From an uncultured Bacteroides sp. (GTDB taxonomy: Bacteria; Bacteroidota; Bacteroidia; Bacteroidales; GCA-2748055), in NCBI GenBank assembly GCA_964575865.1, contig CAZNSZ010000003.1, forward strand, positions 27,266 to 91,265: DNA of 64,000 nt. The letters are read 5' to 3'. Numbering within the stretch: position 1 is the first letter of the stretch; every line of letters begins with the position of its first letter. Shown here one piece after another: positions 5,239 to 64,000 of this stretch. Position numbers and translations under genes: made by a program. Below the pieces are notes generated by a model. That model was not told the DNA's origin and did no database searches. It saw only the letters and a program-made list of their open reading frames with translations.

Positions 5239-5255
5239 TTTCAGCCCGAAGAACC

Positions 5256-6386
5256 TTATAATCTTGTGCTTAAAGCCGGTATGATCCTTTCCTTCCATGC
5301 GCTGAACGTTCCGCTGCTGATTTCGTGTCGTGCCTGTCTGACCAGCCACAGGTAAAAACCCAGGTTGTGGAGCGTGGCTACCTGCGCTCCGAGCATTTCT
5401 CCCGATATGATCAGATGACGCAGGTATGCCTTTGAATATTGTGTGTCCACATAACTATGTGCCTCTTCGTCAATGGGCGTATAATCATTGCTCCATTTCC
5501 TGTTCTTGATATTGATGATGCCCCGGTCGGTAAAGAGCATGCCGTTTCGCCCGTTCCTGGTGGGCATCACGCAATCGAACATATCGATACCCAGTGCGAT
5601 GGATTCCAGAATATTGACCGGGGTCCCCACGCCCATCAGGTAGCGGGGCCGGTCATCCGGGAGGATCCCCCCCACCACCTCCAGCATGGCATACATCTCT
5701 TCGGCCGGTTCTCCCACAGACAGTCCGCCGATGGCATTTCCCGCTGCCCCCTTTTCCGCCACCCTGGTGGCAGATTCCCTCCGCAGGTCGGCATATACGC
5801 TTCCCTGCACGATGGGAAAAAAGTCCTGGTGGTGTCCGTACAGGGGTTCAGTCTCCCGGAACCTCTCCCACCCCCTGTCCAGCCAGTGATGGGTCAGTTC
5901 CATGGAGGACCTGGCATGCTTGTGGTCTGCAGGCCAGGAGGTGCACTCATCGAAGGCCATCATGATATCCGAGCCGATGGTACGCTGGATGTCAACGATG
6001 TTTTCCGGGGTGAACAGGTGTTTCGATCCGTCGATGTGGGACTGGAACCGGGCGCCCTCGGGCCGCAGTTTCCGGTTGGATGCCAGGGAAAACACCTGGT
6101 AACCGCCACTGTCGGTCAGGATCGATCGGTCCCAGTTCATGAACCGGTGCAGCCCTCCTGCCCCTTCCAGGACCTCCGTTCCAGGCCGGAGGTACAGGTG
6201 ATAGGTGTTCCCGAGAATGATCGGGGCATCCAGATCCTTTTCAAGCTCCCGCTGGTGAACCCCCTTCACGGTTCCTGCCGTACCGACCGGCATGAAAACC
6301 GGGGTCCTGATCTCCGAATGTCCGGTCCTCAGAACGCCGGTCCTGGCCTGACTTGACGGGTCCCTGTGTATGATTTCGAAGTCCAT
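5256..6386 (-). CDS. tgt: tRNA-guanine transglycosylase (queuine tRNA-ribosyltransferase)
   Basis: Motifs RTPVFMPVGT, LTDSGGYQV and FDCVMPTRNGRNG. Start set at MDFEIIHRD (6386); the ORF track extends to 6440. Confidence 0.85.
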   Translation of the reverse strand: MDFEIIHRDPSSQARTGVLRTGHSEIRTPVFMPVGTAGTVKGVHQRELEKDLDAPIILGNTYHLYLRPGTEVLEGAGGLHRFMNWDRSILTDSGGYQVFSLASNRKLRPEGARFQSHIDGSKHLFTPENIVDIQRTIGSDIMMAFDECTSWPADHKHARSSMELTHHWLDRGWERFRETEPLYGHHQDFFPIVQGSVYADLRRESATRVAEKGAAGNAIGGLSVGEPAEEMYAMLEVVGGILPDDRPRYLMGVGTPVNILESIALGIDMFDCVMPTRNGRNGMLFTDRGIINIKNRKWSNDYTPIDEEAHSYVDTQYSKAYLRHLIISGEMLGAQVATLHNLGFYLWLVRQARHEISSGTFSAWKERIIPALSTRL

Positions 6387-48005: not shown

Positions 48006-48461
48006 ATGCCACCACAACTAAAACGCCTGATTCCCATCTTCATTGTATTCGTCGGTCTGTTCCTGCTGGTGCGCCATTTTCTGATACCTGAATCATTCGG
48101 CCAGTATGGCCACTACCGTGGAGATGCCCTCAATGAAATAGCGGCCCAGGAAAAAAGGGTCGCCAGCAAAGCGATGTGTGTGGAGTGTCACTGGGACGTG
48201 CAGGAAGTGATCGAAAATGACGTACACGCGGCGCTTTCCTGCATCATCTGTCATGGTGAGGGGCTGGCCCACACAGAAGAACCCTCGGCCGATAATATTG
48301 AGAAGCTCACCGAACGGGCACTCTGCCTGAAATGCCATCAGCTGAATCCCGCACGTCCGGCCGAGGTGGTCTTCCAGGTCGACCCGGTCACCCACAATCC
48401 TGAATTCGAGAATTGTTCCGATTGTCATCACCCGCATCAAGTATGGGAGGGACTCCAATGA
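48006..48461 (+). CDS. membrane-anchored tetraheme cytochrome c
   Basis: N-terminal TM helix and four CxxCH motifs (CVECH, CIICH, CLKCH, CSDCH). Confidence 0.8.
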   Translation: MPPQLKRLIPIFIVFVGLFLLVRHFLIPESFGQYGHYRGDALNEIAAQEKRVASKAMCVECHWDVQEVIENDVHAALSCIICHGEGLAHTEEPSADNIEKLTERALCLKCHQLNPARPAEVVFQVDPVTHNPEFENCSDCHHPHQVWEGLQ

Positions 48462-49210
48462 AATCATCCAGGCGAAAATTCATGAAGGCCTCTTCGGCCG
48501 CTGCCGGTGCCATCCTGCTGACCTCGGCCATAAAACCGTTCCAAATGCTGCTCATGGCCTCTGATCCTCCCCCGGAGGAGGGCCCCTGGTGGGGGGTCGG
48601 GATCGATATCACACAGTGCATCGGGTGCGGAATGTGCGCGAAGGGCTGCAAGATGGAAAACGACGTCCCTGACGAGCCCTTTTATTTCAGGACCTGGGTG
48701 GAACAGTATACCATTCTCCACGACGGGGAGGTGCTGATCCAGTCCCCCAACGGAAGCATCGACGGTTTCACCCAGCCGGTCCCCGAAGAGGAGATCTTCA
48801 AGACCTTTTTCGTCCCCAAAATGTGCAACCACTGCGCCAAATCCCCCTGTACCCAGGTGTGCCCGGTGGGAGCCACCTTTGAAAGTCCTGACGGGGTGGC
48901 GCTGGTGGATGAAAAGTATTGCATCGGTTGCGCCTATTGCGTCCAGGCATGTCCTTACGGCTGCCGGTACATCCATCCTGAAAAGAAAGTGGCCGATAAA
49001 TGTACCCTCTGTTACCACCGGCTCAAGGAGGGTACCGATCCGGTCTGCATGGAAATCTGTCCCACCGGGGCCAGGTTATATGGTGACCTGCGTGACAGGG
49101 AAAGCAAGCTTGTGAAATTCTTGCGCGAACACGACTACCAGGTCCTGAAGCCGCACCTCAATACGGGATCTAAATTATTCTATAACGCGCTCACCGCAGA
49201 AATCAGCTGA
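48458..49210 (+). CDS. Tat-exported 4x[4Fe-4S] ferredoxin subunit (NrfC/PsrB/DsrO-like)
   Basis: Twin-arginine signal SRRKFMK. Four Cys clusters: CIGCGMCAKGC, CNHCAKSPCTQVCP, CIGCAYCVQACP and CTLC...CMEICP. The ATG overlaps the cytochrome stop (ATGA). Confidence 0.8.
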   Translation: MKSSRRKFMKASSAAAGAILLTSAIKPFQMLLMASDPPPEEGPWWGVGIDITQCIGCGMCAKGCKMENDVPDEPFYFRTWVEQYTILHDGEVLIQSPNGSIDGFTQPVPEEEIFKTFFVPKMCNHCAKSPCTQVCPVGATFESPDGVALVDEKYCIGCAYCVQACPYGCRYIHPEKKVADKCTLCYHRLKEGTDPVCMEICPTGARLYGDLRDRESKLVKFLREHDYQVLKPHLNTGSKLFYNALTAEIS

Positions 49211-49211
49211 T

Positions 49212-50411
49212 ATGGACCACACGCAACACCTCTATGACATGCTCTCCCAGGTGGAAGGATACATCTACCCCAACGAGATTGCCCTCCAGTGGGGGATCCT
49301 GGTGGTCCTTTATCCTTACATCACCGGGCTGGTAGCCGGGGCCTTCATCCTGGCCTCACTTGAACGCGTGTTCAAGGTCAAAGTTCTCCGTCCCACCTAT
49401 CAACTGGCACTGCTCACCGCACTCGCCTTCCTGATATGCGCCCCGCTGCCCCTGGTCTCCCATCTGGGACAGCCGGGCCGCGCCTACGAGATCATGATCA
49501 CCCCCCATGCCAAATCGGCCATGGCCATCTTCGGATTCGTCTACCTCTGGTACCTGATGGTGGTCCTGTTGCTGGAGATCTGGTTCGATTACCGGGCCGA
49601 TTTTGTTCGCTGGTCGAAGGAAAAAACCGGGTTCATGAAGCATGTCTACCGGGTGCTGAGCCTCGGGGTCAGCGACCTCTCGCCAAGGACAATCAGCTGG
49701 GACGAACGGCTGGGCTACATCATCACCATCATAGGGATCCCGTCCGCCTTCCTCCTGCACGGGTATGTGGGATTCATTTTCGGGTCCATCAAAGCCAACC
49801 CCTGGTGGTCCACCGTGCTGATGCCTGTGATCTTCCTCTTCTCTGCCATGGTCTCCGGCATCGCCCTGGTGATGGTCCTCTACATGGCGGTTTCTGCGAT
49901 CCGCAAAGTGAAAATCGACATGGCCTGCCTCGATATGGTGGGCAGGTATCTCTTTTACATGCTGATCCTCGACTTCGCCCTCGAATCCCTTGACCAGGTG
50001 CACCGGATCTACGAAGCAGAGGAATCGTTCGATATCCTCCACGTCCTGGTGAACGGCAGGCTGAACTACACCCTGTTCGGATTCCAGATCGGCCTCGGGA
50101 CCCTGGTACCGCTGATTGCCCTGGGGATCCTTCAGGTAACCAAAATGGAAGAACGCATCCGGAAAACCATCTACCTGGCTTCCGGCATCCTGGTGCTGAT
50201 GGGGATCTTTTTCATGCGCTGGAATGTGGTAATCGGCGGCCAGCTCTTTTCCAAAGGCTTCCACGGATTCACCGATTTCAAACTTTCCCTTGCCGGTTCC
50301 GAGGGCCTTTTCATGGCCATCATGTGGATGGCCCTGCCCTTCGGCATCCTGGCATTCCTGCTCTGGCTGATGCCTCCATGGAAAAAACAGGAAGCCCTCT
50401 CTGAACCCTAA
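49212..50411 (+). CDS. NrfD/PsrC-family integral membrane quinone-interacting subunit
   Basis: 399 aa with ~10 TM helices. It starts 1 nt after the NrfC-like stop, and its size and position are typical of NrfD-like subunits. Confidence 0.65.
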   Translation: MDHTQHLYDMLSQVEGYIYPNEIALQWGILVVLYPYITGLVAGAFILASLERVFKVKVLRPTYQLALLTALAFLICAPLPLVSHLGQPGRAYEIMITPHAKSAMAIFGFVYLWYLMVVLLLEIWFDYRADFVRWSKEKTGFMKHVYRVLSLGVSDLSPRTISWDERLGYIITIIGIPSAFLLHGYVGFIFGSIKANPWWSTVLMPVIFLFSAMVSGIALVMVLYMAVSAIRKVKIDMACLDMVGRYLFYMLILDFALESLDQVHRIYEAEESFDILHVLVNGRLNYTLFGFQIGLGTLVPLIALGILQVTKMEERIRKTIYLASGILVLMGIFFMRWNVVIGGQLFSKGFHGFTDFKLSLAGSEGLFMAIMWMALPFGILAFLLWLMPPWKKQEALSEP

Positions 50412-50424
50412 AAAACACTCCCGG

Positions 50425-52107
50425 ATGAAAGCACCACCCGAACATCTTGACCACCGGCTGGAGGAACTCCGGCAGCGGATAGAGGAGCTGGAGCAACGGG
50501 TCGGGCAACTGGAAGCCGGCTCCCCGGTCAGTGAACCCTCCTTCACCGTCAGGATCGCTGCTGATCCAGAAGAGGATGACCGGCAGCTGAAAAAGAGCAG
50601 TGCAGAGCCCGTCGAATCGGTGGAATCCCGGATAGGCGAGTACGGCATGGCCTGGCTGGGCAACTTTGTGCTGCTTTTCGGGATCCTTTTCCTCACACAG
50701 TTCCTCCGGATCAGGGAGCAGGAGCTGCTGTCCCTTGTCCTGGGACTCGTTTCAGTTGCTGCCGTTTACCTTGCAGGGTACCTGACCCGGCCCTCCTTTC
50801 CCTACCTGTCGGGATTGTTCGGATACAATGGCCACATCCTGCTCTTCATGATTGCCATGCAGGTCTATCTCCTTCCCGGGAACCGGCTGACCGGCAATGC
50901 GTTGATCGGAGAAGGCATTGTGCTTGCAGTGATCGGCGTCATGTTTTACCTCACCCTGAAAAGGGAGTCCCAGGTGCTCGCCATCATCACCTGGATCATG
51001 GCCACGGTGGCAGCCATTGCCAGTAACCAGACCCACCTGATGCTCCCGCTGATGGTGGCAGTGGCATGGAGTGCCCTCTTTGTGACCTACCGGTACAACT
51101 GGGGGGCCGCTCTGATCACTTCCGTTATACTGGTCTATTTTACCTTCCTGATCTGGATCCTGGGAGATCCCTTTGTGACCCATCAGACCGGCGTCATCAC
51201 CTCCCACCAGTTCAGTTTCCTGTACCTTTTTGCATGTGCGATGGCGTACACCTTCCTGACCGTGCTCCCCCGGTCGGAACGTTTCAAAGAGGGGACGATC
51301 AATGCTGCCATACTCCTGAACGGAATGGGCTTTTCCACCATCCTGACCATTTCGGTACTGGCCTTCTTTCCCGATGACTATTTCCTTCTGTTCGGTGTGA
51401 TCGCAGCATGCTGCATGGGATTCGCCGTCTGGTTGCAGTCCCGTGGTGTATGGAAAAGGATTTCCGCCCTGTACGCCATATACGGCTTCATCGCACTGAG
51501 TATATGCGTGGCGGGGGCATTCGGATTCCCCAGGGCATTTCTGGCGCTGGCACTGCAGAGCCTGCTGGTAGTATCGGTTGCCCTCTGGTTCCGCTCACGG
51601 TTCATGGTGGTCATGAACACCCTCCTGGTGCTCGGATTGCTGATCACCTACCTTGCCCTGCCTGAAAATGAACACCCGGTCAATTTCAGCTTCGCCCTGG
51701 TGGCACTGGTGACTGCAAGGGTGTTGAACTGGAAAAAGAAAAGGCTGGAGATCCGGACCGAACTGATCCGGAACACCTATCTCATCACCGGGGCTTCCGT
51801 ATGGCTGTACAGCCTGCACGAAGTCATCCCGGCCCATTTCATTTCACTCTCCTGGGTGTTGTCGGCAGTGGTATTTTTCCTGCTCAGCCTTCTGCTGCAT
51901 AACATCAAGTACCGCTGGCTGGCCATCGGGACCATGATCGTTACCGTATTCTATGTGTTCATCGTGGACCTGAAGAGCATCAGCCTGGGATACCGGGTTG
52001 TGGCATTGCTGCTGATCGCTGTCATCTCCCTCAGCATCTCCATATTCTATTCCAGGAAGCTTAAAAATGATCCTGACGGAAAGGGGAAGCCGGATCCGGC
52101 CCCTTAG
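50425..52107 (+). CDS. polytopic membrane protein with N-terminal coiled coil (DUF2339-like)
   Basis: LEELRQRIEELEQRVGQLE followed by 12 or more hydrophobic helices. Lies 13 nt after the NrfD-like gene. Confidence 0.45.
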   Translation: MKAPPEHLDHRLEELRQRIEELEQRVGQLEAGSPVSEPSFTVRIAADPEEDDRQLKKSSAEPVESVESRIGEYGMAWLGNFVLLFGILFLTQFLRIREQELLSLVLGLVSVAAVYLAGYLTRPSFPYLSGLFGYNGHILLFMIAMQVYLLPGNRLTGNALIGEGIVLAVIGVMFYLTLKRESQVLAIITWIMATVAAIASNQTHLMLPLMVAVAWSALFVTYRYNWGAALITSVILVYFTFLIWILGDPFVTHQTGVITSHQFSFLYLFACAMAYTFLTVLPRSERFKEGTINAAILLNGMGFSTILTISVLAFFPDDYFLLFGVIAACCMGFAVWLQSRGVWKRISALYAIYGFIALSICVAGAFGFPRAFLALALQSLLVVSVALWFRSRFMVVMNTLLVLGLLITYLALPENEHPVNFSFALVALVTARVLNWKKKRLEIRTELIRNTYLITGASVWLYSLHEVIPAHFISLSWVLSAVVFFLLSLLLHNIKYRWLAIGTMIVTVFYVFIVDLKSISLGYRVVALLLIAVISLSISIFYSRKLKNDPDGKGKPDPAP

Positions 52108-52114
52108 GTCCTGA

Positions 52115-52528
52115 TCAGCTCCCTGTGGTTTCCTCCTCAGGCATGGGCTCCACTGCAGCCCTGGATTCCTTCGCCGGTTTCGGCGAATCCGCATTCCTGG
52201 GGGAGAGAAACAGGAAATTGTCACAGACGATCTCCGTACTGAAATGGCGGTTCCCTTCCGGGTCCTCCCAGGAGTTGGTGGAAATTTTCCCTTCCACATA
52301 AAGGGCATCCCCTTTTTTCACATGCTGTTTCACGATCTCGGCAGGCCGGTTCCAGACCACAATCCGGTGCCATTCGGTCCGACGCACCTCCTCCCCTTCC
52401 TTATCCTTCCAGACCTCGTTGGTGGCCAGCGGGAAGTTGGCCACAAAAGCCTGGCCGTCCCGTTCGGACACGCGGGGGGCCTCACCCACGTTCCCTACGA
52501 GCGTTACTCTGTTTACACCATATTTCAT
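52115..52528 (-). CDS. ssb: single-stranded DNA-binding protein
   Basis: OB-fold N-terminus MKYGVNRVTLVGNVG...TEWHRIVVWN. The C-terminus ends PEEETTGS, without a canonical D-D-(I/L)-P-F tip. Confidence 0.85.
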   Translation of the reverse strand: MKYGVNRVTLVGNVGEAPRVSERDGQAFVANFPLATNEVWKDKEGEEVRRTEWHRIVVWNRPAEIVKQHVKKGDALYVEGKISTNSWEDPEGNRHFSTEIVCDNFLFLSPRNADSPKPAKESRAAVEPMPEEETTGS

Positions 52529-52580
52529 AATGCTAAAGATTTGGTTACAGAAGTTAATGTGGCGAGGAGTGGGGATATCG
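52493..52580 (-). repeat. ssb 5'-region repeat, copy A (functional copy, contiguous with ssb)
   Basis: The first 12 ssb codons plus ~52 nt upstream. Aligns by eye with 53231-53322 and 53929-54021. Confidence 0.85.
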
Positions 52581-52621
52581 TTGATGGAGCAGTGAGAAAT
52601 GAGATCGCGCTTAAATCACGT

Positions 52622-52921
52622 TCATAAATCATCTTTCTTTTTCGGGTCAGATCTGTTATCAAAGAGATCGAGTAATATGATTTGATCACCTTCGATCATG
52701 TAAAATATACTGACGTGTTTAGTAATAGAAAAGCCCCTGATATTCTTCTCAGGGTATTGCATGGCACCTATTTCAGGGAATTCAGTCAAAATCTCCAGAA
52801 AATCATAAAGCTTTCTCATAAAAGCCATTACAACACTTTCTCCCCACTTTGTTTCTAGATAAATGATTATTTGATCAAGCTTAATATCCGCTCTGGTGGT
52901 CCAGCGTATCTCTAAAGCCAT
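52622..52921 (-). CDS. RelE/ParE-family type II toxin
   Basis: 99 aa. It overlaps the upstream small gene by 10 nt. Sequence style (IRWTTRADIKLDQIIIYL...GDQIILLDLFDNRSDP) fits Bacteroidota ParE-like plasmid-stabilisation toxins. Confidence 0.65.
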   Translation of the reverse strand: MALEIRWTTRADIKLDQIIIYLETKWGESVVMAFMRKLYDFLEILTEFPEIGAMQYPEKNIRGFSITKHVSIFYMIEGDQIILLDLFDNRSDPKKKDDL

Positions 52922-53154
52922 TTCTTATGCTTCGCCTTTTGCTTTTCGTGGTCGACCAAGTTTTCTTTGTATTTTGACTCAGATTCTGAAATTAATAATT
53001 CTTTCCTCTGCTCATCCGAGAGTTGATTCCATAAATCACCTTCATTCTGGTCTTTGGATTTCGAAAGTAAATCATAGAGTTTAATTAATAGTTGATCATT
53101 TTCAATCTCATCAATGAGTTGATGGAGGTTAGTTCGTATATCTGACTGTTTCAT
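52912..53154 (-). CDS. putative antitoxin (partner of 52622..52921)
   Basis: 80-aa acidic helical protein directly upstream of, and overlapping, the toxin. A TATCTTTG -7 box lies 14 nt upstream. Confidence 0.55.
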   Translation of the reverse strand: MKQSDIRTNLHQLIDEIENDQLLIKLYDLLSKSKDQNEGDLWNQLSDEQRKELLISESESKYKENLVDHEKQKAKHKKWL

Positions 53155-53168
53155 TTTAGACTTTTATT

Positions 53169-53176
53169 CAAAGATA
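53169..53176 (-). promoter_or_regulatory. candidate -7 promoter box (TATCTTTG) of TA cassette 1
   Basis: Plus strand CAAAGATA is the minus strand TATCTTTG. It lies 14 nt upstream of the antitoxin ATG at 53154. Confidence 0.35.
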
Positions 53177-53266
53177 CTAAAACCTATAGTGCATTTCCTC
53201 AGAACCAGAACTAGTACAAATAAACTGCACCCCTACGAGCGTTACACGATTAACTCCGTATTTCAT
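53177..53266 (-). pseudogene. ssb 5' stub (12 ssb codons, then unrelated sequence and stop)
   Basis: ATG AAA TAC GGA GTT AAT CGT GTA ACG CTC GTA GGG encodes MKYGVNRVTLVG, then diverges (VQFICTSSGSEEMHYRF*). Confidence 0.7.
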
Positions 53267-53322
53267 ATTGCTTAAGATTTGGTTACGGGGGTTGATGTGA
53301 TGAGGGGCGGGGAGATCGGTCA
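53213..53322 (-). repeat. ssb 5'-region repeat, copy B
   Basis: 110 nt collinear with copy C (53912-54021), including the extra shared AGTACAAATAAACT. The right ~90 nt align with copy A. Confidence 0.85.
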
Positions 53323-53323
53323 A

Positions 53324-53581
53324 CTATCTGTAGATGTCTTTCCTGTGACCTATTTTTATAACCAGGACAACCAGTTTATCATCCTCAATGGAATATACAA
53401 TCCTGTATCTGCCTTGCCGTATGCGATATTTTTCATCTGCAGTAAGTTTCTCACAACCCGGAGGTCTTGGATTTGATGAAAGGCTTCGGATCTTGCCAAT
53501 TATCCTGGATAGATCTCGTTTTGGGATCTTCTGAAGTTCCTTTACGGCAGTGGGTTTAATGTAGATTTTATATTTTCCCAC
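53324..53581 (-). CDS. RelE/ParE-family type II toxin
   Basis: 85 aa. KYRIRQGRYRIVYSIEDDKLVVLVIKIGHRKDIY is a classic RelE/ParE C-terminal pattern. Confidence 0.8.
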   Translation of the reverse strand: MGKYKIYIKPTAVKELQKIPKRDLSRIIGKIRSLSSNPRPPGCEKLTADEKYRIRQGRYRIVYSIEDDKLVVLVIKIGHRKDIYR

Positions 53582-53801
53582 TAGACCTTAATTCTTTCAG
53601 CACATATTCAAAATCCAGGTTGGGTTCATTGAGACGGCTTTCAAAAGCTTCAAGGTCTTCAAAGTCCTCAGCGAGGGAATTTCGAATAGCCTCATTTACC
53701 AGGTCCGATATCGATCTTGATGCCTGTGCAGCCTTGATCTTAAGGGCTCTATGAATCCTTGGATCCAGGTAAACAGTAGCTCGTTTTAAATCAGTTTTCA
53801 T
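53568..53801 (-). CDS. ribbon-helix-helix-type antitoxin
   Basis: 77 aa. The RATVYLDPRIHRALKIKAAQASRSISDLVNEAI strand-helix-helix pattern is present. Overlaps the toxin start by 14 nt. Confidence 0.7.
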   Translation of the reverse strand: MKTDLKRATVYLDPRIHRALKIKAAQASRSISDLVNEAIRNSLAEDFEDLEAFESRLNEPNLDFEYVLKELRSSGKI

Positions 53802-53806
53802 AGATA

Positions 53807-53814
53807 CAAATATA
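53807..53814 (-). promoter_or_regulatory. candidate -7 promoter box (TATATTTG) of TA cassette 2
   Basis: Plus strand CAAATATA is the minus strand TATATTTG. It lies 5 nt upstream of the antitoxin ATG, which implies a near-leaderless mRNA. Confidence 0.3.
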
Positions 53815-53911
53815 CAGAAAAATGTTAAAACGTTATGCTGCTATGTTCGTTATAACATTGTTCTATTTCACTGATAGACTGCCAACTTGGTTAATAGCCT
53901 CAAGAATAATA

Positions 53912-54021
53912 AGTACAAATAAACTACTCCCCAACAAGCGTTACACGATGTACTCCGTATTTCATAATGATTAAGATTTGGTTACAGGGGTTAATGTGAT
54001 GAGGGATGAGGAGATCGGTCA
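53912..54021 (-). repeat. ssb 5'-region repeat, copy C
   Basis: See copy B. Contains the stub ATG AAA TAC GGA GTA CAT CGT GTA ACG CTT GTT GGG GAG TAG. Confidence 0.85.
53924..53965 (-). pseudogene. ssb 5' stub (MKYGVHRVTLVGE*)
   Basis: Hand translation of the minus strand: 12 ssb-like codons followed by a stop. Confidence 0.7.
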
Positions 54022-54122
54022 GCAAGCCCTGTGGATTTACTTGATCATTGACTTAAGTTCATATACTCAATATTTTAGACAATTCAATTACATTTTGAAC
54101 GACCAATCACTTTTAAGTAAAA

Positions 54123-55430
54123 ATGAAACGACCACTAAGCTTCTCGGGACTAATTCTGTGTATAATTCTTTTTAGCTGTACAACCGAATATATATATGTT
54201 AAAACATTGCCAAGGCCTGATTGCAGTGGAGAAACCAGTATAGAGAAGGAGTTCTACAAGAACACCAAGAAATTACTAGTGATACCTGATGCCCCTTCTG
54301 ATCCCATTGAATTCAACAAGGTCCTAAGCTTCTATAAAGCCCAATATCCCGATTCTCTGGTAAAAACAGAATCTGAGCTTGTTCAGGATGATTTTTCAAA
54401 AGGATTAGACATTTATGGTAATATCAATGACTTCGAAAACTGGGAGGTTTTCAATCTGCCCATCAAGCAACTGGCCTTTGGATTCAAGTTTTCAAATCGG
54501 AAGTATACAAATGATGCTGATGCAATGTATTACATCTCAAAGAACAGGAGGATTTTCACTGGCAATTCTATCAAGATCATCAGAGAAATAGAGAACACCG
54601 CGGCAGGATTCTATAAATATATCATATTCCGGAACGGCCTATTATCAGAATATGGCTTTCCGGATGATAGCAGAATTGATATTGATCAATTAAGGGTATC
54701 CAACTTCAATCAATCATCATCAAAGTTCTTTAATCTTTTTGTAGATAAGAATTTCCCCAGGGATACAAGAATCGATGATTCTGTAGTAACAGACATCTGC
54801 GAACGAATGAAAATACCCTATCCTGACTTTACAATTAATGCTTTCCTGCATGACGATGCGAATTCAACGAGATTGTTTACCAACTTCTTCTATATGACCG
54901 GATGCGATACATTGGAAAAGGATCTCATGATCAACACGGTGGCCTTTAATGGGATCCATACAAATGGGTTGGATCTGGAAATGATAAAACATGAAACCTC
55001 TCATATGTTATGGAATACCAGTGTCGGATCACCCGGAGAGCAATCATTCTTAAATGAGGGAATTCAGGAGTATTATCAACAATTGCTTGATTCATCACGA
55101 ATACATCGGAACATTGAAGTATTAACCCGATTTCCTGACTATGACATAATTAACCTGATTATAAGAGGCAATTTTCAGGATTTCTGGGGTGGTCCTGCCG
55201 AGAATTACTGGCCTATCGCATATAATATATCGGGCTTATTCGTTAAGTATCTGATTGATAACTGGGGCCTTGAAAATTTTAAAAAGTTTTATCCGATAGC
55301 TGACAGGGAAAAAGCATACTGGCAGATATACAAAAGGACGCCAATGGAACTGAAAAATGAATTTTACAGCTGGATGCGAAGCAGGATATGCAGGAGGCAG
55401 CTTCCGTGGCTCAACGGACTTTCTTTTTGA
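54123..55430 (+). CDS. lipoprotein with gluzincin (M1-like) HExxH...E metallopeptidase motif
   Basis: Lipobox ILFSC. HETSHMLWNTSVGSPGEQSFLNEGIQEYY parallels the M1 HExxH-X18-E / WLNEGFA arrangement. The region is AT-rich. Confidence 0.5.
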   Translation: MKRPLSFSGLILCIILFSCTTEYIYVKTLPRPDCSGETSIEKEFYKNTKKLLVIPDAPSDPIEFNKVLSFYKAQYPDSLVKTESELVQDDFSKGLDIYGNINDFENWEVFNLPIKQLAFGFKFSNRKYTNDADAMYYISKNRRIFTGNSIKIIREIENTAAGFYKYIIFRNGLLSEYGFPDDSRIDIDQLRVSNFNQSSSKFFNLFVDKNFPRDTRIDDSVVTDICERMKIPYPDFTINAFLHDDANSTRLFTNFFYMTGCDTLEKDLMINTVAFNGIHTNGLDLEMIKHETSHMLWNTSVGSPGEQSFLNEGIQEYYQQLLDSSRIHRNIEVLTRFPDYDIINLIIRGNFQDFWGGPAENYWPIAYNISGLFVKYLIDNWGLENFKKFYPIADREKAYWQIYKRTPMELKNEFYSWMRSRICRRQLPWLNGLSF

Positions 55431-56571: not shown

Positions 56572-58281
56572 ATGAAGATGAAGTTCATGAGCCTGTTAAC
56601 AGGGATGGTTTTCCTGGCGATAGCCATCTCCGGTTGCACATCGTCAATGGACGGAAAAGGAGGCGGTGACAATAGACCGAATATCCTGCTCATTGTTGCC
56701 GATGATCTGGGATACAGCGATATCGCCTCTTTCGGGGGCAACATCCATACACCGGTCCTGAGCGGACTGGCGCAGGAAGGGATCTCCTTTTCAAATTTCC
56801 ATGTCCAGCCCACCTGTTCCCCCACCCGGGCATCGTTGCTGACGGGAAACGACAACCATGTGGCGGGCCTGGGGATCATGTCTGAAATGGATTATCCTGA
56901 ACTGAGTGCATTTAACCTGCCTGGCTACCAGGGTTACCTGAGCCAGCAGGTGGTCACCATTCCTGAAGTACTGCGTGAAAACGGATACCACACCTATATG
57001 GTCGGCAAATGGCATCTGGGTGAAGGGCCTGGCAAAGACCCATTTGACAGGGGCTTTGAAGAGACTTTTATCCTCGGAACCGGCGGAGGCAGTCACTGGG
57101 ATGACCAGAGGGCGTTGTCACCCCTGCAGCATATGGATTACACCCGGAACGGCTTACCGGTTGGACTGCCGGAAGATTTTTATTCATCCAGGAATTATAC
57201 CGATTCTCTGATCGCCTTTATCGACAAACATAAAGGCGATCAGAAGCCGTTCTTCTCCTATTTATCCTATACCGCTGTTCACGACCCGCTGCATGCGCCC
57301 GGGGAATATATCGACAAATACAGGGGAAAGTTCGACATGGGATGGGATTCCCTGTGGGTGGAGCGGCTGGAGAACCTTAAATCCCTGGGACTCATTTCAA
57401 AGGATGTATACCGGTTTTCAAAGAACCCTGCCATCCCCGCCTGGGATTCTCTGCCCGGGGACCATCAGAAAGAGCTTTCTAGAAATATGGAAGTCTACGC
57501 GGGTATGCTTGAATACCTGGATATGAGTGTGGGGCGTGTTTTCGAGTACCTGAAAAAAGAAGGGATGTACGATAACACCCTGATCATCTTTATGTCCGAT
57601 AATGGTGCAAACGGCGCCACGGCATCCCTCTATCCCGGAAACGAAGATGGCGCCTATATCAGCACCTTTGATAATTCGCTCGGGAACCGGGGACTGAAAA
57701 ACTCTTACATCGAAACGGGAGCCGGCTGGGCACAGGCATCCTCCTCCCCCTTCCGGTATTTTAAAAGCTTTGCCAGTGAAGGGGGCATCCGGGTTCCCCT
57801 GATCATTAAAATGCCGGGGCAGGCAGTTCATGCCGGTCAGTGGAATCATGGGTTTGTTCATGTTACCGATCTCATGCCGACGGTGCTGGAACTGGCTGAG
57901 ACTCCCTATCCCGACCAGTACAGGGGACGACGCATTCACCCTGCAACAGGCAAATCCATTATCCCGGTTCTTGTGGGAGATTCGGTCACTGTTCACTCGG
58001 GCGACGGATTTGGATGGGAGCTCTTTGAAATGAAAGCCTACATCAAAGGAAATTGGAAACTCCTTCGCTTGCCCGAGCCTATGGGAAGCGGGAACTGGGA
58101 GTTATACGATCTTGAAAATGACCCGGCCGAGGCCACGGACCTATCGGCTCAATTCCCGGAGATAAAAAGGCAGTTGATCGAAGAATGGAACCAGTACGCC
58201 AGTCAAAATGAGGTCCACGATCACAAGGGACACTTTGACGAATTGTACCGGCTCAATTACATGCCCGAAGAAAACGATTGA
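56572..58281 (+). CDS. arylsulfatase (formylglycine-dependent, S1 family)
   Basis: Signal/lipobox AISGC. Motifs NILLIVADDLGYSD and the sulfatase signature CSPTRASLLTG (CxPxR). Confidence 0.85.
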   Translation: MKMKFMSLLTGMVFLAIAISGCTSSMDGKGGGDNRPNILLIVADDLGYSDIASFGGNIHTPVLSGLAQEGISFSNFHVQPTCSPTRASLLTGNDNHVAGLGIMSEMDYPELSAFNLPGYQGYLSQQVVTIPEVLRENGYHTYMVGKWHLGEGPGKDPFDRGFEETFILGTGGGSHWDDQRALSPLQHMDYTRNGLPVGLPEDFYSSRNYTDSLIAFIDKHKGDQKPFFSYLSYTAVHDPLHAPGEYIDKYRGKFDMGWDSLWVERLENLKSLGLISKDVYRFSKNPAIPAWDSLPGDHQKELSRNMEVYAGMLEYLDMSVGRVFEYLKKEGMYDNTLIIFMSDNGANGATASLYPGNEDGAYISTFDNSLGNRGLKNSYIETGAGWAQASSSPFRYFKSFASEGGIRVPLIIKMPGQAVHAGQWNHGFVHVTDLMPTVLELAETPYPDQYRGRRIHPATGKSIIPVLVGDSVTVHSGDGFGWELFEMKAYIKGNWKLLRLPEPMGSGNWELYDLENDPAEATDLSAQFPEIKRQLIEEWNQYASQNEVHDHKGHFDELYRLNYMPEEND

Positions 58282-58442
58282 TTCCGGTCAGGAATTGCTG
58301 AGCCAATTGAATCCATTTTCAGATGTCCCGTAGCCAACGATCAGTTGTGATTTCATTAACGCTTTCTTATAAAACTATTTACGCCAGGGGATGTTTATGT
58401 GTTATTGGTTTTTAACGCTCACAACCGCAAAATCTATAACCG

Positions 58443-58811
58443 ATGGGACTTTCAGCAGGAATTATGATCATCATCATCAGTATCGCTCACATTATCTATG
58501 GTGAGAAGAAACAAATTCCAGAACTTAAAAAAATTACAAGTGATTCCGTAATGATCGGATCATTAAGAATCATGATTTATCAGGGTGGAATCTTGCTGTT
58601 TGCCGTAGGAATCATTCAGGTTTTGGTTTCGGCTTCCCTCATTCAGTTGCCCGGAATTTCAGCTCATATTCCTGCGGGAATAATCCTGATTAACTTTTTC
58701 ACCAGTTTGATAATAGCAGGTTTTCTGCACAGAGAGATCTTTAAAATCACCCTTCCTCAATTTGTTATCTTCGCTATCATTATCGTTTTGCAACTCCTAT
58801 CCCTGAAATGA
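58443..58811 (+). CDS. small 4-TM membrane protein, unknown function
   Basis: 122 aa, almost entirely hydrophobic helices. Confidence 0.4.
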   Translation: MGLSAGIMIIIISIAHIIYGEKKQIPELKKITSDSVMIGSLRIMIYQGGILLFAVGIIQVLVSASLIQLPGISAHIPAGIILINFFTSLIIAGFLHREIFKITLPQFVIFAIIIVLQLLSLK

Positions 58812-58988
58812 GCTTATAAATTGCCGTTTTGGCTGCGATTGCAGTCCTTGCAATAATTGGCCAGGAATGAAGGAAAAAAGGCTTGTTTGCATCACATTTT
58901 AGACAGTTTTATTAACTTTTATGCTTTGGCATCCGGGGAGCTGTGTTTTATTATCAGATCGCCAGCCGGTTAATCATATTCATTCAAC

Positions 58989-61520
58989 ATGAAAAGACAA
59001 ACATTTTTCGCAATTATCGTACTGCTGTCGGCGGCATGCAATGATGGTTCGAGTCAGGACCTGAAGCTCAATGAACTTGAATATTTCGAGATGCAGGGCG
59101 TCAATATCCTGGTGTACAGCAACCTTTTCACCGGAGGTTTCAACGACGAGAAGACCGCCGGTATAGAATTGATCCACCATGGGGTAAGGACCGCTCAGGG
59201 CGGTGCGGTGAGACTCTCCAGTACTCCGGAACAATGGGATCTCGTTCCTGCAATACCCACCCGGACGGTGGACCAAGCTTCACAAACCATTGCCTCCGAG
59301 TTGAGGTATGAAGCGTACGATTTTAATTCGCGGGTGGTTGTTACCGCAAAGGGAAAAGGTGTCGAAATATCTGTTTACCTTGACAAACCTGTACCTGATG
59401 CCCTCGAGGGGAATGCCGGATTTAATCTTGAGTTTCTGCCCTCGCAATACTGGGGGAAGACCTACCTGATGGACGGGCGCCCCAACCGGTTTCCCCGCTA
59501 TGTGGCCGGGAACACCATAACGAGGCCCAACAGTGAAAAACCGGAGCAGTACAAGGGGTATGTGACTTCCGATGACCGGGGGACCGGCAGGTTTATCGAT
59601 CCGCTTCCCCTTGAAACAGGCCGCACCATCCTTCTTGCTCCCGAGGAACCGGAACGGCTGGTAAAAATTACCTCCCAGGATGCCGATCTGATGCTTTACG
59701 ACGGCCGTGTACTGGCACAAAACGGCTGGTATGTGGTGCGCAGTCTGCTTCCGGCAGGAAAGACAGGCAGGGTGTTGACCTGGACAGTTGAACCAAATGC
59801 CATTGATGGCTGGATCAGAGAGCCCAATATCGGCTTCTCCCAGGTGGGCTACCTCCCTTCACAGCAAAAAATCTCTGTAATTGAACTGGACAAGAAAGAT
59901 ACCCCCCTTTCAAAGGCTTCGGTAGTTCAGATTGGCAGCGACGGAAAAGCAACGGAAGTTTTCAGTGGCAATATCACACCGTGGGGTGACTATTATAAAT
60001 ACCACTATGTGAAGTTTGATTTTTCTTCAGTCACTTCACCCGGAATATATTTTATCCAGTATGGCGACTTCAAAACCAATAACTTCATCATAGATAACAA
60101 TGTGTACGACTGGATCACCGACGCCACCAGTGATATATGGATCCCGATCCATATGAATCACATGTTTGTGAACGAGGCTTACCGGGTGTGGCACGGCGAA
60201 CCTTTTAAGGAAGGGTACCTCCAGGCTCCGCCGAACACCGATCACTTCGACCTTCATGGCCAGGGTCCGACAACCGATACCGAGTATGAGGCGCTGGAAA
60301 CGATCCCCGGTTTAAACATCGGCGGGTTTTTTGATGCCGGAGATTTTGATATCGAGACAGGATCGAACATTTTCGTGGTGGAGAACCTGGTCCAGACATG
60401 GGAATACTTCAAACCCCTGCGCGATCAGACCTATGTCAATGAGGATCAACGTTATGTGGATCTTCACCGTCCCGATGGGACACCGGATATACTGCAGTAT
60501 ATCGAACATGGAACAATGAACCTGGTGGCTCAGGCAGAGATCATCGGCCATATGGCCCAAACGCTCTCCAACGCTGTGCTCGACAATTACCATCACCTGG
60601 GTGATGCAGCCTCGATTACGGACGGGCTTCCATACAATCCGGACCTCGGTCCCTACGAAGTTGCACCGGACGGCCGTTCGAGCGGGGTGAAGGATGATAT
60701 GTGGGCTTTCACCACCCGCAATCCCGGCCTCGACCTCAGGGCAGCAGCGATGTTTGCCTCTGCAAGCCGGGTGCTGAAAGGATATAACGACGATCTGGCG
60801 GATCGGGCATTGCACCAATCGAAAAGACTGCTGCAGGAGGCCACGGAATTACTTGCCGATCAGCCGCAGGATCGCCCCGGCAGGTGGGGACGATCGGCAG
60901 ATGTATCCACCAACCTTCAACTTTACATTACAACCGGGGAACTGCAGTATGCCGATAAATTTAAGGAACTTCTATGGCCGGCGCTGGAGCGCAATCTAAG
61001 TTACGTTATTCTGACTGCGCTACATGCCATACCACACATGGATGCTTCCTATAAAGAGAAACTCCGGCCTTATGTATTTAATTACAAAGAATATATCCAA
61101 GAGCTCGAAAAGGATAATCCCTATGGAGTCCCCATCGGTCTTGGCAACTGGGCCGGAGGCGGAAGTATTGTAAGCTTTGGAACCACCATTTGCTTTGCAA
61201 ACTCCTACTTTCCAGATATCATCGATGCCCGCCACGCGTTCAAAACAACCAGCTGGCTGTTCGGATGCCATCCTTACCACAATTATTCCCTGGTTGCCAC
61301 AGTGGGCGCTGCACGCCCAAAAGAGGTCTTCTATGGCAACAACAGGGCGGATTTCTCATTTATTCCGGGCAATGTGGCTCCGGGAATCCTTTTCCGGAAA
61401 CCCGATCACTTTGAAAACTACGACGACTGGCCATTCCTCTGGGGTCAGAACGAAGGTACGATCGGTGGAAATACCAGTTATCTGATCTTTGGGTCTGCCT
61501 TTAAGGAGCTGATAAAATAA
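58989..61520 (+). CDS. glycoside hydrolase family 9-like protein with N-terminal Ig-like (CelD_N-type) region
   Basis: Lipoprotein-like signal LLSAAC. FDFSSVTSPGIYFIQ is the Ig-like domain pattern. NIGGFFDAGDFDIE matches the GH9 DAGD catalytic motif. The C-terminal QNEGTIGGNTSY resembles the GH9 catalytic Glu region. Confidence 0.55.
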   Translation: MKRQTFFAIIVLLSAACNDGSSQDLKLNELEYFEMQGVNILVYSNLFTGGFNDEKTAGIELIHHGVRTAQGGAVRLSSTPEQWDLVPAIPTRTVDQASQTIASELRYEAYDFNSRVVVTAKGKGVEISVYLDKPVPDALEGNAGFNLEFLPSQYWGKTYLMDGRPNRFPRYVAGNTITRPNSEKPEQYKGYVTSDDRGTGRFIDPLPLETGRTILLAPEEPERLVKITSQDADLMLYDGRVLAQNGWYVVRSLLPAGKTGRVLTWTVEPNAIDGWIREPNIGFSQVGYLPSQQKISVIELDKKDTPLSKASVVQIGSDGKATEVFSGNITPWGDYYKYHYVKFDFSSVTSPGIYFIQYGDFKTNNFIIDNNVYDWITDATSDIWIPIHMNHMFVNEAYRVWHGEPFKEGYLQAPPNTDHFDLHGQGPTTDTEYEALETIPGLNIGGFFDAGDFDIETGSNIFVVENLVQTWEYFKPLRDQTYVNEDQRYVDLHRPDGTPDILQYIEHGTMNLVAQAEIIGHMAQTLSNAVLDNYHHLGDAASITDGLPYNPDLGPYEVAPDGRSSGVKDDMWAFTTRNPGLDLRAAAMFASASRVLKGYNDDLADRALHQSKRLLQEATELLADQPQDRPGRWGRSADVSTNLQLYITTGELQYADKFKELLWPALERNLSYVILTALHAIPHMDASYKEKLRPYVFNYKEYIQELEKDNPYGVPIGLGNWAGGGSIVSFGTTICFANSYFPDIIDARHAFKTTSWLFGCHPYHNYSLVATVGAARPKEVFYGNNRADFSFIPGNVAPGILFRKPDHFENYDDWPFLWGQNEGTIGGNTSYLIFGSAFKELIK

Positions 61521-63077: not shown

Positions 63078-64000
63078 ATGCGCTATAAAAGCATCCTGTT
63101 GCTCCCAGCCATTTCCCTGGCATTGTATCTCCCGCTTTTCTCGCAAACACCGGAATTCGAAAATCCGATCGCGGAACAGCGGGCCGATCCCTGGGTGCAC
63201 AGGTCCGGGGACGGGACCTATTACCTGGTGGCCACTGTTCCCGAATACGACCGCATCGTGATCAGGAGGGCGGGCAGCATCAACGGATTGAAAAATGCAA
63301 CGGAAAAAACCATATGGGTAAAACACGAAACCGGGGTGATGGGACATCACATCTGGGCTCCCGAACTGCACCGGATTAACGGAACCTGGTACATCTATTT
63401 TGCCGCAGGCGAGGCAGAAAACATCTGGAACATCCGAATGTGGGTACTTTCCAATCCGTCAGAGGATCCCATGGAGGGGTCCTGGAAGGAGGAAGGAAGG
63501 ATCGAAACCGCCATTGAATCCTTTTCCCTGGATGCCACCACCTTCGAGCACATGGGGAGAAGGTATCTGATCTGGGCACAGAATGTATCGGGAGGTGAAC
63601 ACGGGACCGCGCTGGTGATCTCGGAGATGAAAGATCCCATCACGCTGACCGGACCGGAGGTGGTGATCTCCGAACCTGACTTCAGCTGGGAGAAGATGAA
63701 ATATCAGGTTAACGAAGGACCTGCGGTGATTAAAAGGGACGGAAGGATTTTCGTGACCTATTCGGCCAGCGCCACCAACCACCACTATTGTATGGGGCTG
63801 CTGTGGACCGATGAAGACGCCGACCTGCTGCACGCATCCAGCTGGAACAAATCCCCGGGACCTGTTTTTTACACCAACGTTGAGTTGATGCGATACGGAC
63901 CTGGTCACAATTCCTTCACCACTGCGGAGGATGGAGAGACGGTGGTCATGATGTATCATGCCAGGGATTACAGGGATATTCAAGGGCACGAACTGTCTGA
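63078..64000 (+). CDS. glycoside hydrolase family 43 protein (3' end beyond window)
   Basis: Open frame with no stop, so it is absent from the ORF track. My translation reads MRYKSILLLPAISLALYLPLFSQ...NPIAEQRADPWVHRSGDGTYYLVATVP...HHIWAPELHRINGTWYIYFAAG...NEGPAVIKRDGRIFVTYSAS, which fits GH43 five-bladed propeller motifs. Confidence 0.75.
   Translation, partial: MRYKSILLLPAISLALYLPLFSQTPEFENPIAEQRADPWVHRSGDGTYYLVATVPEYDRIVIRRAGSINGLKNATEKTIWVKHETGVMGHHIWAPELHRINGTWYIYFAAGEAENIWNIRMWVLSNPSEDPMEGSWKEEGRIETAIESFSLDATTFEHMGRRYLIWAQNVSGGEHGTALVISEMKDPITLTGPEVVISEPDFSWEKMKYQVNEGPAVIKRDGRIFVTYSASATNHHYCMGLLWTDEDADLLHASSWNKSPGPVFYTNVELMRYGPGHNSFTTAEDGETVVMMYHARDYRDIQGHELS

Follow-up and report, generated by a model that had tools for sequence, protein, structure and literature searches.

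Why should the beginning of a single gene stand three times in tandem, with a different toxin-antitoxin (TA) pair between one copy and the next? The question is raised by ssb, which encodes a single-stranded DNA-binding protein, in a 64,000-nucleotide stretch from an uncultured Bacteroides sp. (assembly GCA_964575865.1, contig CAZNSZ010000003.1, positions 27,266 to 91,265 of the forward strand), the whole of which is referred to here as the window. The initial annotation had explained the repeats by small cassettes that insert serially at the 5' end of ssb and regenerate the gene while leaving its old start behind as a stub. Our best reading of the sequences compared here is that, in a host group of uncultured sediment Bacteroidota, the ssb start serves as a recurrent docking site for tandem cassettes without a recombinase gene of their own. 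We consider it probable, with modest confidence, that such cassettes enter the 5' half of ssb through a recombinase encoded in trans and rebuild the gene, and that recombination and deletion reshuffle them later.

The window array runs in the order stub C, TA2, stub B, TA1 and copy A, which is fused to ssb. Its features, together with the sequence immediately outside it, are the following.

52115-52528, minus strand: intact ssb gene, 137 aa, whose 5' half is the putative docking site (PF00436 SSB, E 1.9e-31, residues 5-108 matching model positions 1-104 of 104).
52493-52584, minus strand: repeat copy A, a leader of about 56 nt plus codons 1-12, continuous with ssb; attR-like junction (alignment, nhmmer, and alignment to the related locus L120).
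52622-52921, minus strand: toxin of TA1 (cassette 1), ParE family, 99 aa (PF05016, E 1.2e-07).
52912-53154, minus strand: candidate antitoxin of TA1, 80 aa, overlapping the toxin start (list of open reading frames (ORFs); no Pfam match).
53169-53176, minus strand: TATCTTTG, Bacteroidota-type -7 promoter box of cassette 1, 14 nt upstream of the antitoxin ATG at 53154 (pattern TANNTTTG).
53213-53230, minus strand: class-1 arm GTGCAGTTTATTTGTACT, the conserved cassette end, directly after stub B (arm sequence search).
53231-53324, minus strand: repeat copy B, made up of the leader and the first 12 ssb codons; displaced stub, attL-like (alignment, pattern, peptide, nhmmer).
53324-53581, minus strand: toxin of TA2 (cassette 2), ParE family, 85 aa (PF05016, E 1.3e-12).
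53568-53801, minus strand: antitoxin of TA2, ribbon-helix-helix (RHH) type, 77 aa (weak RHH Pfam matches; the identical gene in contig L023 is precomputed as PF22180 RH3_dom).
53807-53814, minus strand: TATATTTG, -7 promoter box of cassette 2, directly upstream of the antitoxin gene (TAnnTTTG pattern).
53912-53929, minus strand: class-1 arm GAGTAGTTTATTTGTACT, after stub C (arm sequence search).
53930-54023, minus strand: repeat copy C, made up of the leader and codons 1-12 (carrying N6H); outermost stub (alignment, pattern, peptide, nhmmer).
54024-54079, minus strand: upstream extension U1 with the motif ...TATATGAACTTAAGTCAAT, also present ahead of ssb repeats in other genomes.
54123-55430, plus strand: 435-aa gene in low-GC DNA (0.37-0.41), divergent from the array; predicted lipoprotein with an HExxH...E motif (HETSHMLW...NEGIQEYY).

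The repeated unit of about 92 nt thus comprises about 56 nt of non-coding leader followed by ssb codons 1-12. Alignment and a repeat finder (family D1) placed it at 52493-52584, 53231-53324 and 53930-54023, and an nhmmer profile recovered the same three copies on the minus strand at 52494-52584 (86 bits), 53232-53324 (87 bits) and 53931-54023 (89 bits). A degenerate pattern for the coding part matched three times, only at A, B and C, with 0.00 matches expected from shuffled sequences, and a six-frame peptide search of the window returned MKYGVNRVTLVG twice and MKYGVHRVTLVG once. No fourth stub with at least 7 of 12 identical residues was detected by the peptide search in the 64 kb, and no other arm type was found in the window. 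An SSB-like match at 63696-63851 sits inside an unrelated 307-aa ORF and was set aside as chance.

The three copies differ mutually at 12-31% of positions. Their alignment gave five differing codons between A and B, all synonymous, and three synonymous differences plus one non-synonymous one (N to H) between B and C. Stubs B and C are directly followed by an 18-nt arm, G(T/A)G(C/T)AGTTTATTTGTACT; its last 14 nt, AGTTTATTTGTACT, occur just twice in the window at up to two mismatches (0.07 expected), both times behind these stubs. Each inter-repeat segment holds one PF05016 ParE toxin gene (99 aa in one, 85 aa in the other) and a small gene upstream of it, the two genes of a pair overlapping by 10 or 14 nt, and the segments are otherwise unrelated, carrying different TA pairs. 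Both pairs have the features of type II TA systems (a small overlapping antitoxin gene, a ParE-fold toxin and their own promoter), with RHH-type Pfam matches only for the TA2 antitoxin. In these matters the initial annotation was correct in every particular that we checked by alignment, pattern, peptide and Pfam searches, namely the three ssb starts, their codon differences, the frame break into a common arm, and one TA pair with its own box in each segment; the conserved upstream part it described is real as well, although it measures about 56 nt and not about 52.

Homologues of the window SSB at 73-89% identity occur in many Bacteroidota metagenome-assembled genomes (MAGs). Canonical bacterial SSBs recruit partner proteins through an acidic DDxxPF-type C-terminal tip, which the window protein and its homologues P0001-P0120, all of them short (113-137 aa), do not have. 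No second ssb gene was found in the window. Judged from its sequence, the window SSB is probably a paralogue and not the housekeeping SSB.

We gathered ssb loci with an exact 22-base pattern covering the best-conserved stretch of leader and start codon, which yielded 22 stretches of Bacteroidota MAGs and 68 metagenome contigs, and a profile built from these copies then picked up more diverged ones in the same loci. After removal of near-identical contigs, 88 non-redundant ssb loci remained. This material is mostly short, with 8-20 kb readable around each array, and frameshifts in some long-read assemblies inflate the count of long stubs. Between two and six repeat copies were present in 40 of the 88 loci, always in the same orientation within a locus, with start-to-start spacings of 259-5356 bp (median 1345, n = 67), and the last copy was fused to a full-length ssb wherever the contig reached far enough. 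The architecture is found in both short-read and long-read assemblies, and for the window strain the identical array is present in five other independent assemblies, which excludes an assembly error. Three copies lying close together in the same orientation might suggest a local tandem duplication of the ssb start, a chance similarity or an assembly artefact. We regard this as so improbable as to be negligible, given that the inter-repeat segments are two unrelated TA pairs, that the copies have diverged to the extent described above, and that the arrangement recurs not only in the five assemblies but in dozens of genomes sequenced with short and long reads.

Loci with just one detected copy of the repeat include L001, L003, L009 and L028. 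Such single-copy loci are not necessarily empty: in L009 (ssb on the plus strand) a low-GC tract upstream of ssb contains what appears from sequence alone to be a HEPN/nucleotidyltransferase TA pair (1818-2392), and the single-repeat locus L012 has a class-3a ssb fragment (one of the junction types described below) about 2 kb upstream (position 2165). Among the metagenome contigs, 33 contig ends fall within 150 nt of a repeat where 12.2 would be expected at random, an excess that would be expected if populations were heterogeneous at these points.

The positions at which the stubs end are not scattered but fall into at least four discrete sites in ssb, each with its own conserved arm. Class 1, the window type, ends at codon 12 and continues into the consensus GTGTAGTTAAYKTGTACT; at least 31 independent copies of this junction occur in other loci, with many different cargos. 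Class 2 ends at about codon 15 and continues into GTGTAACGTTA (at least 10 copies). Two further classes both end at about codons 56-60, following GAATGGCACCGGATCGT, and diverge thereafter, class 3a into a conserved arm of about 110 nt (19 copies) and class 3b into a different arm, CACTCTGTKGTGAATGTTGTAAC. The identical type of arm stands ahead of unrelated cargo, including TA pairs, beta-lactamase-family genes, an SDR gene and genes for membrane proteins. Short palindromes, AGTTAACT and TAACGTTA, lie within the arms, and no 11-6-11 arrangement of the Xer type was recognisable by eye. Integrase families show 'sublocation' preferences within tRNA genes, and by analogy the combination of discrete stub ends with class-specific arms is the product that would be expected of site-specific systems. 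The recombinase behind the site-specific insertion proposed by the initial annotation remains an inference, none having been found in the arrays or near them. On the outer side, the BLAST similarity that defines U1 runs 55-60 nt upstream of window copy C into L009, L006, L007 and the combined loci CAWCAK (L011+L004) and CAVQMZ (L022+L020), and a second type of conserved extension, U2 (...TGAATATGTTAAGAAT), stands ahead of the repeat in several of the loci with a DUF6090 neighbour listed below (L010, L018) and in some others.

The cargo between the repeats is diverse. Pfam scans of sampled ORFs and precomputed annotations identified, besides TA pairs, beta-lactamase-family hydrolases, alpha/beta hydrolases, xylose-isomerase-like TIM barrels, DUF6090 proteins, sulfatases with GH106 glycosidases, CotH/LTD surface proteins, S41 peptidases, two-component systems and proteins sorted by the type IX secretion system. 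The majority of cargo ORFs are encoded on the other strand from ssb, and units of 260-360 bp without any ORF also occur. Both window cassettes have relatives elsewhere. The TA1 toxin family is found between ssb repeats also in L092, CAWCAK and L114, and the TA1 antitoxin candidate accompanies the 99-aa toxin both in CAWCAK and in three identical Logan contigs (L023, L024 and L026), whereas in L114 it stands ahead of a shortened (65-aa) copy of the toxin gene. For the 85-aa TA2 toxin there are about 60 cluster representatives at 79% identity or more, and homologues at 83-89% identity lie within a few kb upstream of ssb on six of seven long contigs, the seventh (L121) ending before any ssb. The order of cassettes differs between these relatives:

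L120: TA2, ssb.
L119: TA2, CotH, ssb.
L111: TA2, S41 peptidase with TPR, ssb.
L109: CotH, TA2, sulfatase with GH106, ssb.
L114: CotH, TA2 remnant, sulfatase with GH106, TA2, TA1, ORF-less unit, ssb.
Window: TA2, TA1, ssb.

The comparison with L120 is the most direct. Its SSB is 86% identical to that of the window and the downstream genes are the same, and its single repeat (bases 478-564) aligns to window copy B and also to copy A, from which it follows that the arm, TA1 and one repeat of the window (about 740 bp) form an insertion bounded by the repeat. Insertion at the 5' end of ssb with regeneration of the gene and a stub left from the old start is supported by the L120 comparison, by the 40 loci with arrays and by the recurrent class-1 junctions. 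The cassette states that the initial annotation suggested comparing do differ, single in L120 and double in the window, a difference between species and not between strains; the five other assemblies of the window strain share one array. Variation is also seen in the middle of arrays. L109 and CAVQUO (L017+L019) have flanks that are 90-92% identical and share a 4.9-kb sulfatase cassette at 95%; the common block starts exactly at a stub/cargo junction, and everything from there to the distal flank differs. L007 and L008 share a 97%-identical block consisting of most of a repeat, TA2, a repeat and an arm, with unrelated sequence on either side. Distal cassettes look eroded, for instance the TA2 remnant of L114, which has no repeats.

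DUF6090 membrane-protein genes are repeatedly the direct divergent neighbour of an ssb repeat (L013, L018, L087, L117, L010, L044 and L098), the cluster comprising nine ORFs in eight loci, four of them inside arrays, plus similar singletons. In L008 (ssb on the plus strand; 4361-5510) the outermost repeat of a TA2-bearing array has, about 1.1 kb upstream of it, a DUF1670/HTH_DeoR gene with a small ORF beside it, and L052 shows the same.

What, then, is the repeat itself? In a set of 90 distinct copies, variability by codon position is 0.04, 0.01 and 0.30 over the 36 coding bases, and differences from the consensus are synonymous rather than non-synonymous by 189:12 in copies that run into native ssb sequence and by 107:24 in stubs, so that the mostly synonymous divergence reported for the three window copies holds in the larger sample. 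From these counts the stubs look like former functional gene starts that are beginning to decay. The 37 upstream bases that lie outside the search pattern gave 0.17, 0.09 and 0.18 in the same three-base register; they show no third-position periodicity, yet are more conserved than synonymous sites, which argues for a selected non-coding element. The conserved leader begins at (T/A)(G/A)ACCGAT and appears G-poor by eye. An N-terminal extension of SSB was considered and rejected, since the leader is open in frame in many copies but lacks both third-position periodicity and a consistent start codon. The leader could be the arm of a recombination site or a regulatory sequence needed by ssb, and either role would explain why every cassette carries it. 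Phage T4 gp32 is a known case of an SSB that regulates its own synthesis by binding an unstructured leader. A pattern search found no TAnnTTTG box in the repeat, against the earlier suggestion that each cassette brings a replacement promoter, and transcription of the window ssb may therefore come by read-through out of the TA1 cassette or start from a promoter that went unrecognised. Nor was a known RNA or tRNA target found: Rfam gave no match with an E-value of 1 or below, and ARAGORN detected no tRNA in the window. An insertion sequence or miniature inverted-repeat transposable element was also dismissed, because the flanks are direct repeats of about 92 nt of the target gene and there are no terminal inverted repeats.

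An array of small cassettes with conserved sites of about 110 nt, among them TA and ORF-less cassettes as in chromosomal integrons, invites comparison with a true integron or a cluster of attC sites lacking integron-integrases (CALIN), in which the repeats would be attC and the integrase would lie beyond the sequence seen. We folded copies B and C with their flanks as single-stranded DNA on both strands and obtained minimum free energies of -4.5 to -10.1 kcal/mol; for three of the four sequences the shuffled controls were the more stable (z +1.7 to +2.15), and the fourth could not be told apart from its controls (z +0.35). A hairpin between the leader sequence CACATTAAC and the reverse-complementary GTTAATGTG of some arms, a 9-nt match, was rejected because it gives no stable fold and its variants do not covary. 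The repeat is not hairpin-forming, hence not attC. In addition, most cargo points the opposite way to the array and is served by promoters of its own, the final site continues in frame into ssb, and no IntI-like gene lies within 10 kb of any annotated array, all of which makes an integron a very improbable explanation.

On the reading that we prefer, the 5' half of the ssb paralogue would be the attachment site for cassettes of 0.26-5.4 kb that have no recombinase gene. The free cassette would be a circle with a two-part attachment site, consisting of a copy of the ssb leader and start plus a family-specific arm; the start part would comprise the first 12 codons in the window, against about 15 or about 57 in other families of cassettes, and the arm part in the window would be G(T/A)G(C/T)AGTTTATTTGTACT. 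Within the common segment, a recombinase, probably of the tyrosine type, whose gene lies elsewhere in the genome would cross the cassette into the resident ssb, whereupon the leader and first codons of the cassette would become the new start of the gene, leaving ssb intact, and the old start would be displaced outward as a stub abutting the arm. Repeated events would stack cassettes, and homologous recombination between the repeats, which are about 80% identical, would together with deletions afterwards reshuffle, fuse and erode them. TA cassettes, which have their own promoters, would probably persist because their loss is costly. The conservation of the leader, even though it is non-coding, fits a sequence that every cassette must supply.

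A number of observations weigh against this reading. No recombinase was seen anywhere in the arrays or near them, and motif searches for tyrosine and serine recombinases, admittedly crude, found none in 613 kb of loci that included the whole window. None of the 118 loci is a circular contig, as judged by terminal overlaps, and no excised circle was seen, so that the checks for a recombinase and for circles proposed by the initial annotation both came out negative. Array polymorphism within a strain was not observed among the five assemblies of the window strain, nor was empty versus occupied polymorphism seen within one population. The sample itself is biased by its ascertainment with an exact pattern towards copies that keep that pattern. 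The shift from AT-rich to GC-rich sequence at codons 12/13 of the window ssb (GC 0.42 in codons 1-12, 0.72 in codons 13-24) cannot be taken as proof of a chimeric gene, since AT-rich starts are common in this 55%-GC genome: in the 42 window genes that encode 200 aa or more, mean GC is 0.46 over the first 36 nt and 0.57 over the next 36 nt, and 16 of the 42 have a start at or below 0.42. TA2 cassettes are 84-86% identical between genomes, barely above ssb (77-82%), which gives no sign of recent transfer. Repeats beside TA2 and TA1 cassettes are, on either side, no more alike than the background (0.81 versus 0.79); if the crossover always took place at the arm, each cargo would be expected to stay with the repeat on its ssb side, and a fixed crossover point is thus unsupported. 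Finally, where the block common to L007 and L008 breaks off on its left, it does so within the repeat and not at the arm. Given the missing linkage and this breakpoint, the crossover core that had been placed at codons 8-12 cannot be pinned.

Taken together, the unlinked repeats and the breakpoint inside a repeat indicate that homologous recombination or gene conversion between repeats clearly contributes. Could it account for the arrays on its own? A few ancient stub/arm junctions would then have been followed by RecA-dependent events between the repeats of about 92 nt, including unequal crossing-over, gene conversion, Campbell-type integration of looped-out circles and allelic exchange after DNA uptake. 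In its favour, the repeats share 74-96% identity and run in the same direction, the variation between L109 and CAVQUO lies mid-array and not just beside ssb, and an explanation of this kind is at ease with the lack of linkage, the breakpoint and the missing recombinase. It leaves unexplained, however, how dozens of unrelated cargos came to lie between the same conserved arm and repeat, and why there are four junction classes with arms of their own, up to about 110 nt long; the arms and the leader are conserved beyond synonymous sites, suggesting selection as sites, and about 92 nt at about 80% identity is a poor substrate for RecA. We therefore consider homologous recombination alone to be unlikely.

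The missing recombinase bears on a further alternative. The window cassettes contain TA genes only, and none was found in any other cassette, in agreement with the initial annotation: across about 100 cassettes, crude motif searches and Pfam scans of selected ORFs revealed no integrase or integrase fragment. Precomputed Pfam annotations within 10 kb on either side of ten array-bearing loci (L109, L111-L114, L117 and L119-L121 among them) list no integrase, resolvase or transposase, and those of ssb loci L115 and L116, in which repeats were not mapped, list no recombinase. The complete absence of integrases over about 100 cassettes is our main argument for an enzyme encoded elsewhere, an argument from absence that relies in part on crude searches. 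The sole exception in the Pfam scans of selected cargo ORFs was one IS110 fragment at a single locus, a truncated transposase gene (PF02371/PF01548) at L004 5272-5736, corresponding to 2265-2732 of the combined, ssb-oriented CAWCAK, which stops 35 nt short of a partial ssb repeat, itself at the distal end of an array with five copies. IS110 was rejected as a driver of the arrays, being represented by one truncated gene at the partial repeat of one MAG and at no other locus. Nor did we find an autonomous relative, either at the ssb site or in viral contigs, phages or plasmids: two patterns, for the repeat and for the class-1 junction, had no match in viral contigs, and the window segment had none in phage and plasmid collections. 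GC skew, which across the window is noise, says nothing either way on a relation to dif or the replication terminus.

The arrays might instead have accreted from remnants, as described for cis-mobilizable elements (CIMEs). Integrative and conjugative elements, integrative mobilizable elements or prophages bearing integrases would have inserted serially, each restoring the 5' end of ssb, and then decayed to remnants that keep their att sites and often a TA module, the cassettes themselves not being mobile. There is precedent for both halves of this scheme, since tycheposon islands have partial-tRNA repeats with degenerate remnants and dusA islands replace the 5' end of a gene by means of an integrase-bearing element; TA modules are typical survivors, and the older distal cassettes do look eroded, as the repeat-less TA2 remnant of L114 illustrates. 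Yet integrases and their fragments, frequent in tycheposon and dusA islands, are missing both from the cassettes and from the 10 kb around the Pfam-annotated arrays. The same small cassettes appear with the same boundaries in different arrays and orders, a recurrence that independent decay would not yield, ORF-less units of 260-360 bp exist, and the viral, phage and plasmid collections offered no match. Accretion of remnants thus seems to us quite unlikely.

How does the locus relate to known systems? The initial annotation knew of no described family with this behaviour, but precedents exist in dusA islands (PMC4482086), CIMEs (PMC5704250) and partial-tRNA arrays (bioRxiv 10.1101/2020.12.28.424599). 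Islands at dusA replace the 5' end of that gene, the original 5' end becoming the island's outer limit, with imperfect direct repeats as flanks and with frequent integrases (Farrugia et al. 2015, DAI integrases; PMC4482086). The ssb arrays resemble them in the insertion at the 5' end of a protein-coding gene, the supply of a new 5' end and the imperfect direct-repeat flanks. In contrast, dusA islands carry their own tyrosine integrase beside att, measure tens of kb and have a 21-bp consensus att, whereas the ssb units span 0.26-5.4 kb without an integrase having been found, share a common segment of about 92-230 nt, are stacked up to six deep and use at least four junction classes in one gene. 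As in target-regenerating islands generally, the target is rebuilt (the intact ssb continues from copy A, with stubs B and C lying outward) and occupancy differs between L120 and the window, here across species; unlike in them, no integrase of their own is found in the window cassettes or in about 100 others.

Tandem accretion, with stacking at the att site in which the gene end lies and with integrase-less remnants that keep att sites, has been described for CIMEs (PMC5704250), and partial-tRNA arrays in tycheposon-type tRNA islands, where integrases or their fragments are common, have been described as well (bioRxiv 10.1101/2020.12.28.424599). The ssb arrays recall both of these systems, in which newer elements push older ones outward, partial copies of the target separate the units and remnants without an integrase keep their att sites. 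They differ in that the targets of CIMEs and tycheposons are 3' ends of tRNA, tmRNA or protein genes, that integrases or fragments are regular there and none was found here, and that at ssb identical small cassettes recur in different orders.

With integrons and CALINs the arrays share many small, diverse cassettes that are bounded by a conserved site, lack a recombinase of their own and are reshuffled in order, including TA cassettes with their own promoters and ORF-less cassettes. Unlike attC, the ssb sites are not hairpins; insertion takes place at a gene start that has to be rebuilt and not at attI beside intI, our non-exhaustive searches found no IntI, and the cargo mostly runs against the array from its own promoters, whereas integron cassettes are for the most part promoterless, run in the direction of the array and are read from Pc. 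Xer-dependent modules (integrative mobile elements exploiting Xer (IMEX) at dif, and the pdif modules of Acinetobacter plasmids) are small, lack a recombinase, often contain TA genes and are moved by a housekeeping recombinase; their 28-bp XerC/XerD sites consist of 11-nt arms and a 6-nt spacer, pdif sites alternate in orientation, and serial integration regenerates the target site. The ssb units would resemble them in being small and recombinase-less, in often containing TA pairs and in regenerating their target, but their repeats are direct, about 92-230 nt long and overlap a coding start, with no 11-6-11 site recognised by eye.

Full-text literature searches returned no description of ssb-anchored arrays of small, recurrent, integrase-less cassettes with several junction families in one gene. 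Insertion that rebuilds a 5' end has its precedent in the dusA islands; stacks of cassettes without integrases at a site of this kind seem not to have been reported.

The surroundings of the array add some further observations. The 435-aa gene divergent from the window array has no Pfam match and no homologue in other arrays; it may be older cargo of the array without a detectable outer stub, its membership being inferred. A second short patch of low GC (0.38) lies at 58300-59000, between a sulfatase gene (56572-58281) and an 843-aa gene (58989-61520). Downstream of ssb, window positions 48413-52107 hold an operon for a Fer4 protein, an NrfD-like protein and a membrane protein of 550-560 aa without a Pfam family. 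The Fer4/NrfD operon adjoins ssb in the window, where gcvP was not identified; in L111, L117, L119 and L120 it is located between ssb and gcvP, in CAVQMZ it stands at the distal end of the array, and it is absent from other lineages (L007, L028 and L115 were compared). On three JGI contigs of about 75 kb (L038, L039 and L040), an SSB 84% identical to that of the window (P0038, present on 17 contigs; L038 10001-10342) is encoded in a phage- or conjugative-element-like context with PcfJ, PcfK, RadC, a faint RecT match and many small ORFs; the start-codon region and first 12 codons of this gene fit the repeat profile and its leader does not. Its context suggests that this lineage of ssb also travels on mobile DNA.

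Stacked arrays of recombinase-less cassettes have so far been known essentially from integrons, with their folded attC sites and IntI, and target-rebuilding islands mostly from the 3' ends of tRNA genes, with integrases of their own. Here both ideas meet at the 5' end of a protein-coding gene and in a phylum with few integrons, and the junction families, at least four in one gene, mirror the sublocation preferences seen in tRNA genes. It is tempting to speculate, though we put this forward only as a tentative possibility, that the start of the ssb paralogue is a permanent acquisition site at which genes are stockpiled as in an integron but independently of IntI and attC, by means of several families of double-stranded, non-hairpin sites, circular cassettes and a dedicated recombinase encoded elsewhere. 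If such a trans-acting enzyme were found, the system would be a new platform for gene capture and might give new tools for site-specific recombination with long, simple, double-stranded sites. Meanwhile the repeat arrays explain why assemblies break at this locus, and the repeat and its arms provide a sequence handle on the flexible gene pool of abundant uncultured sediment Bacteroidota, with its sulfatases, glycosidases, surface proteins and TA systems.

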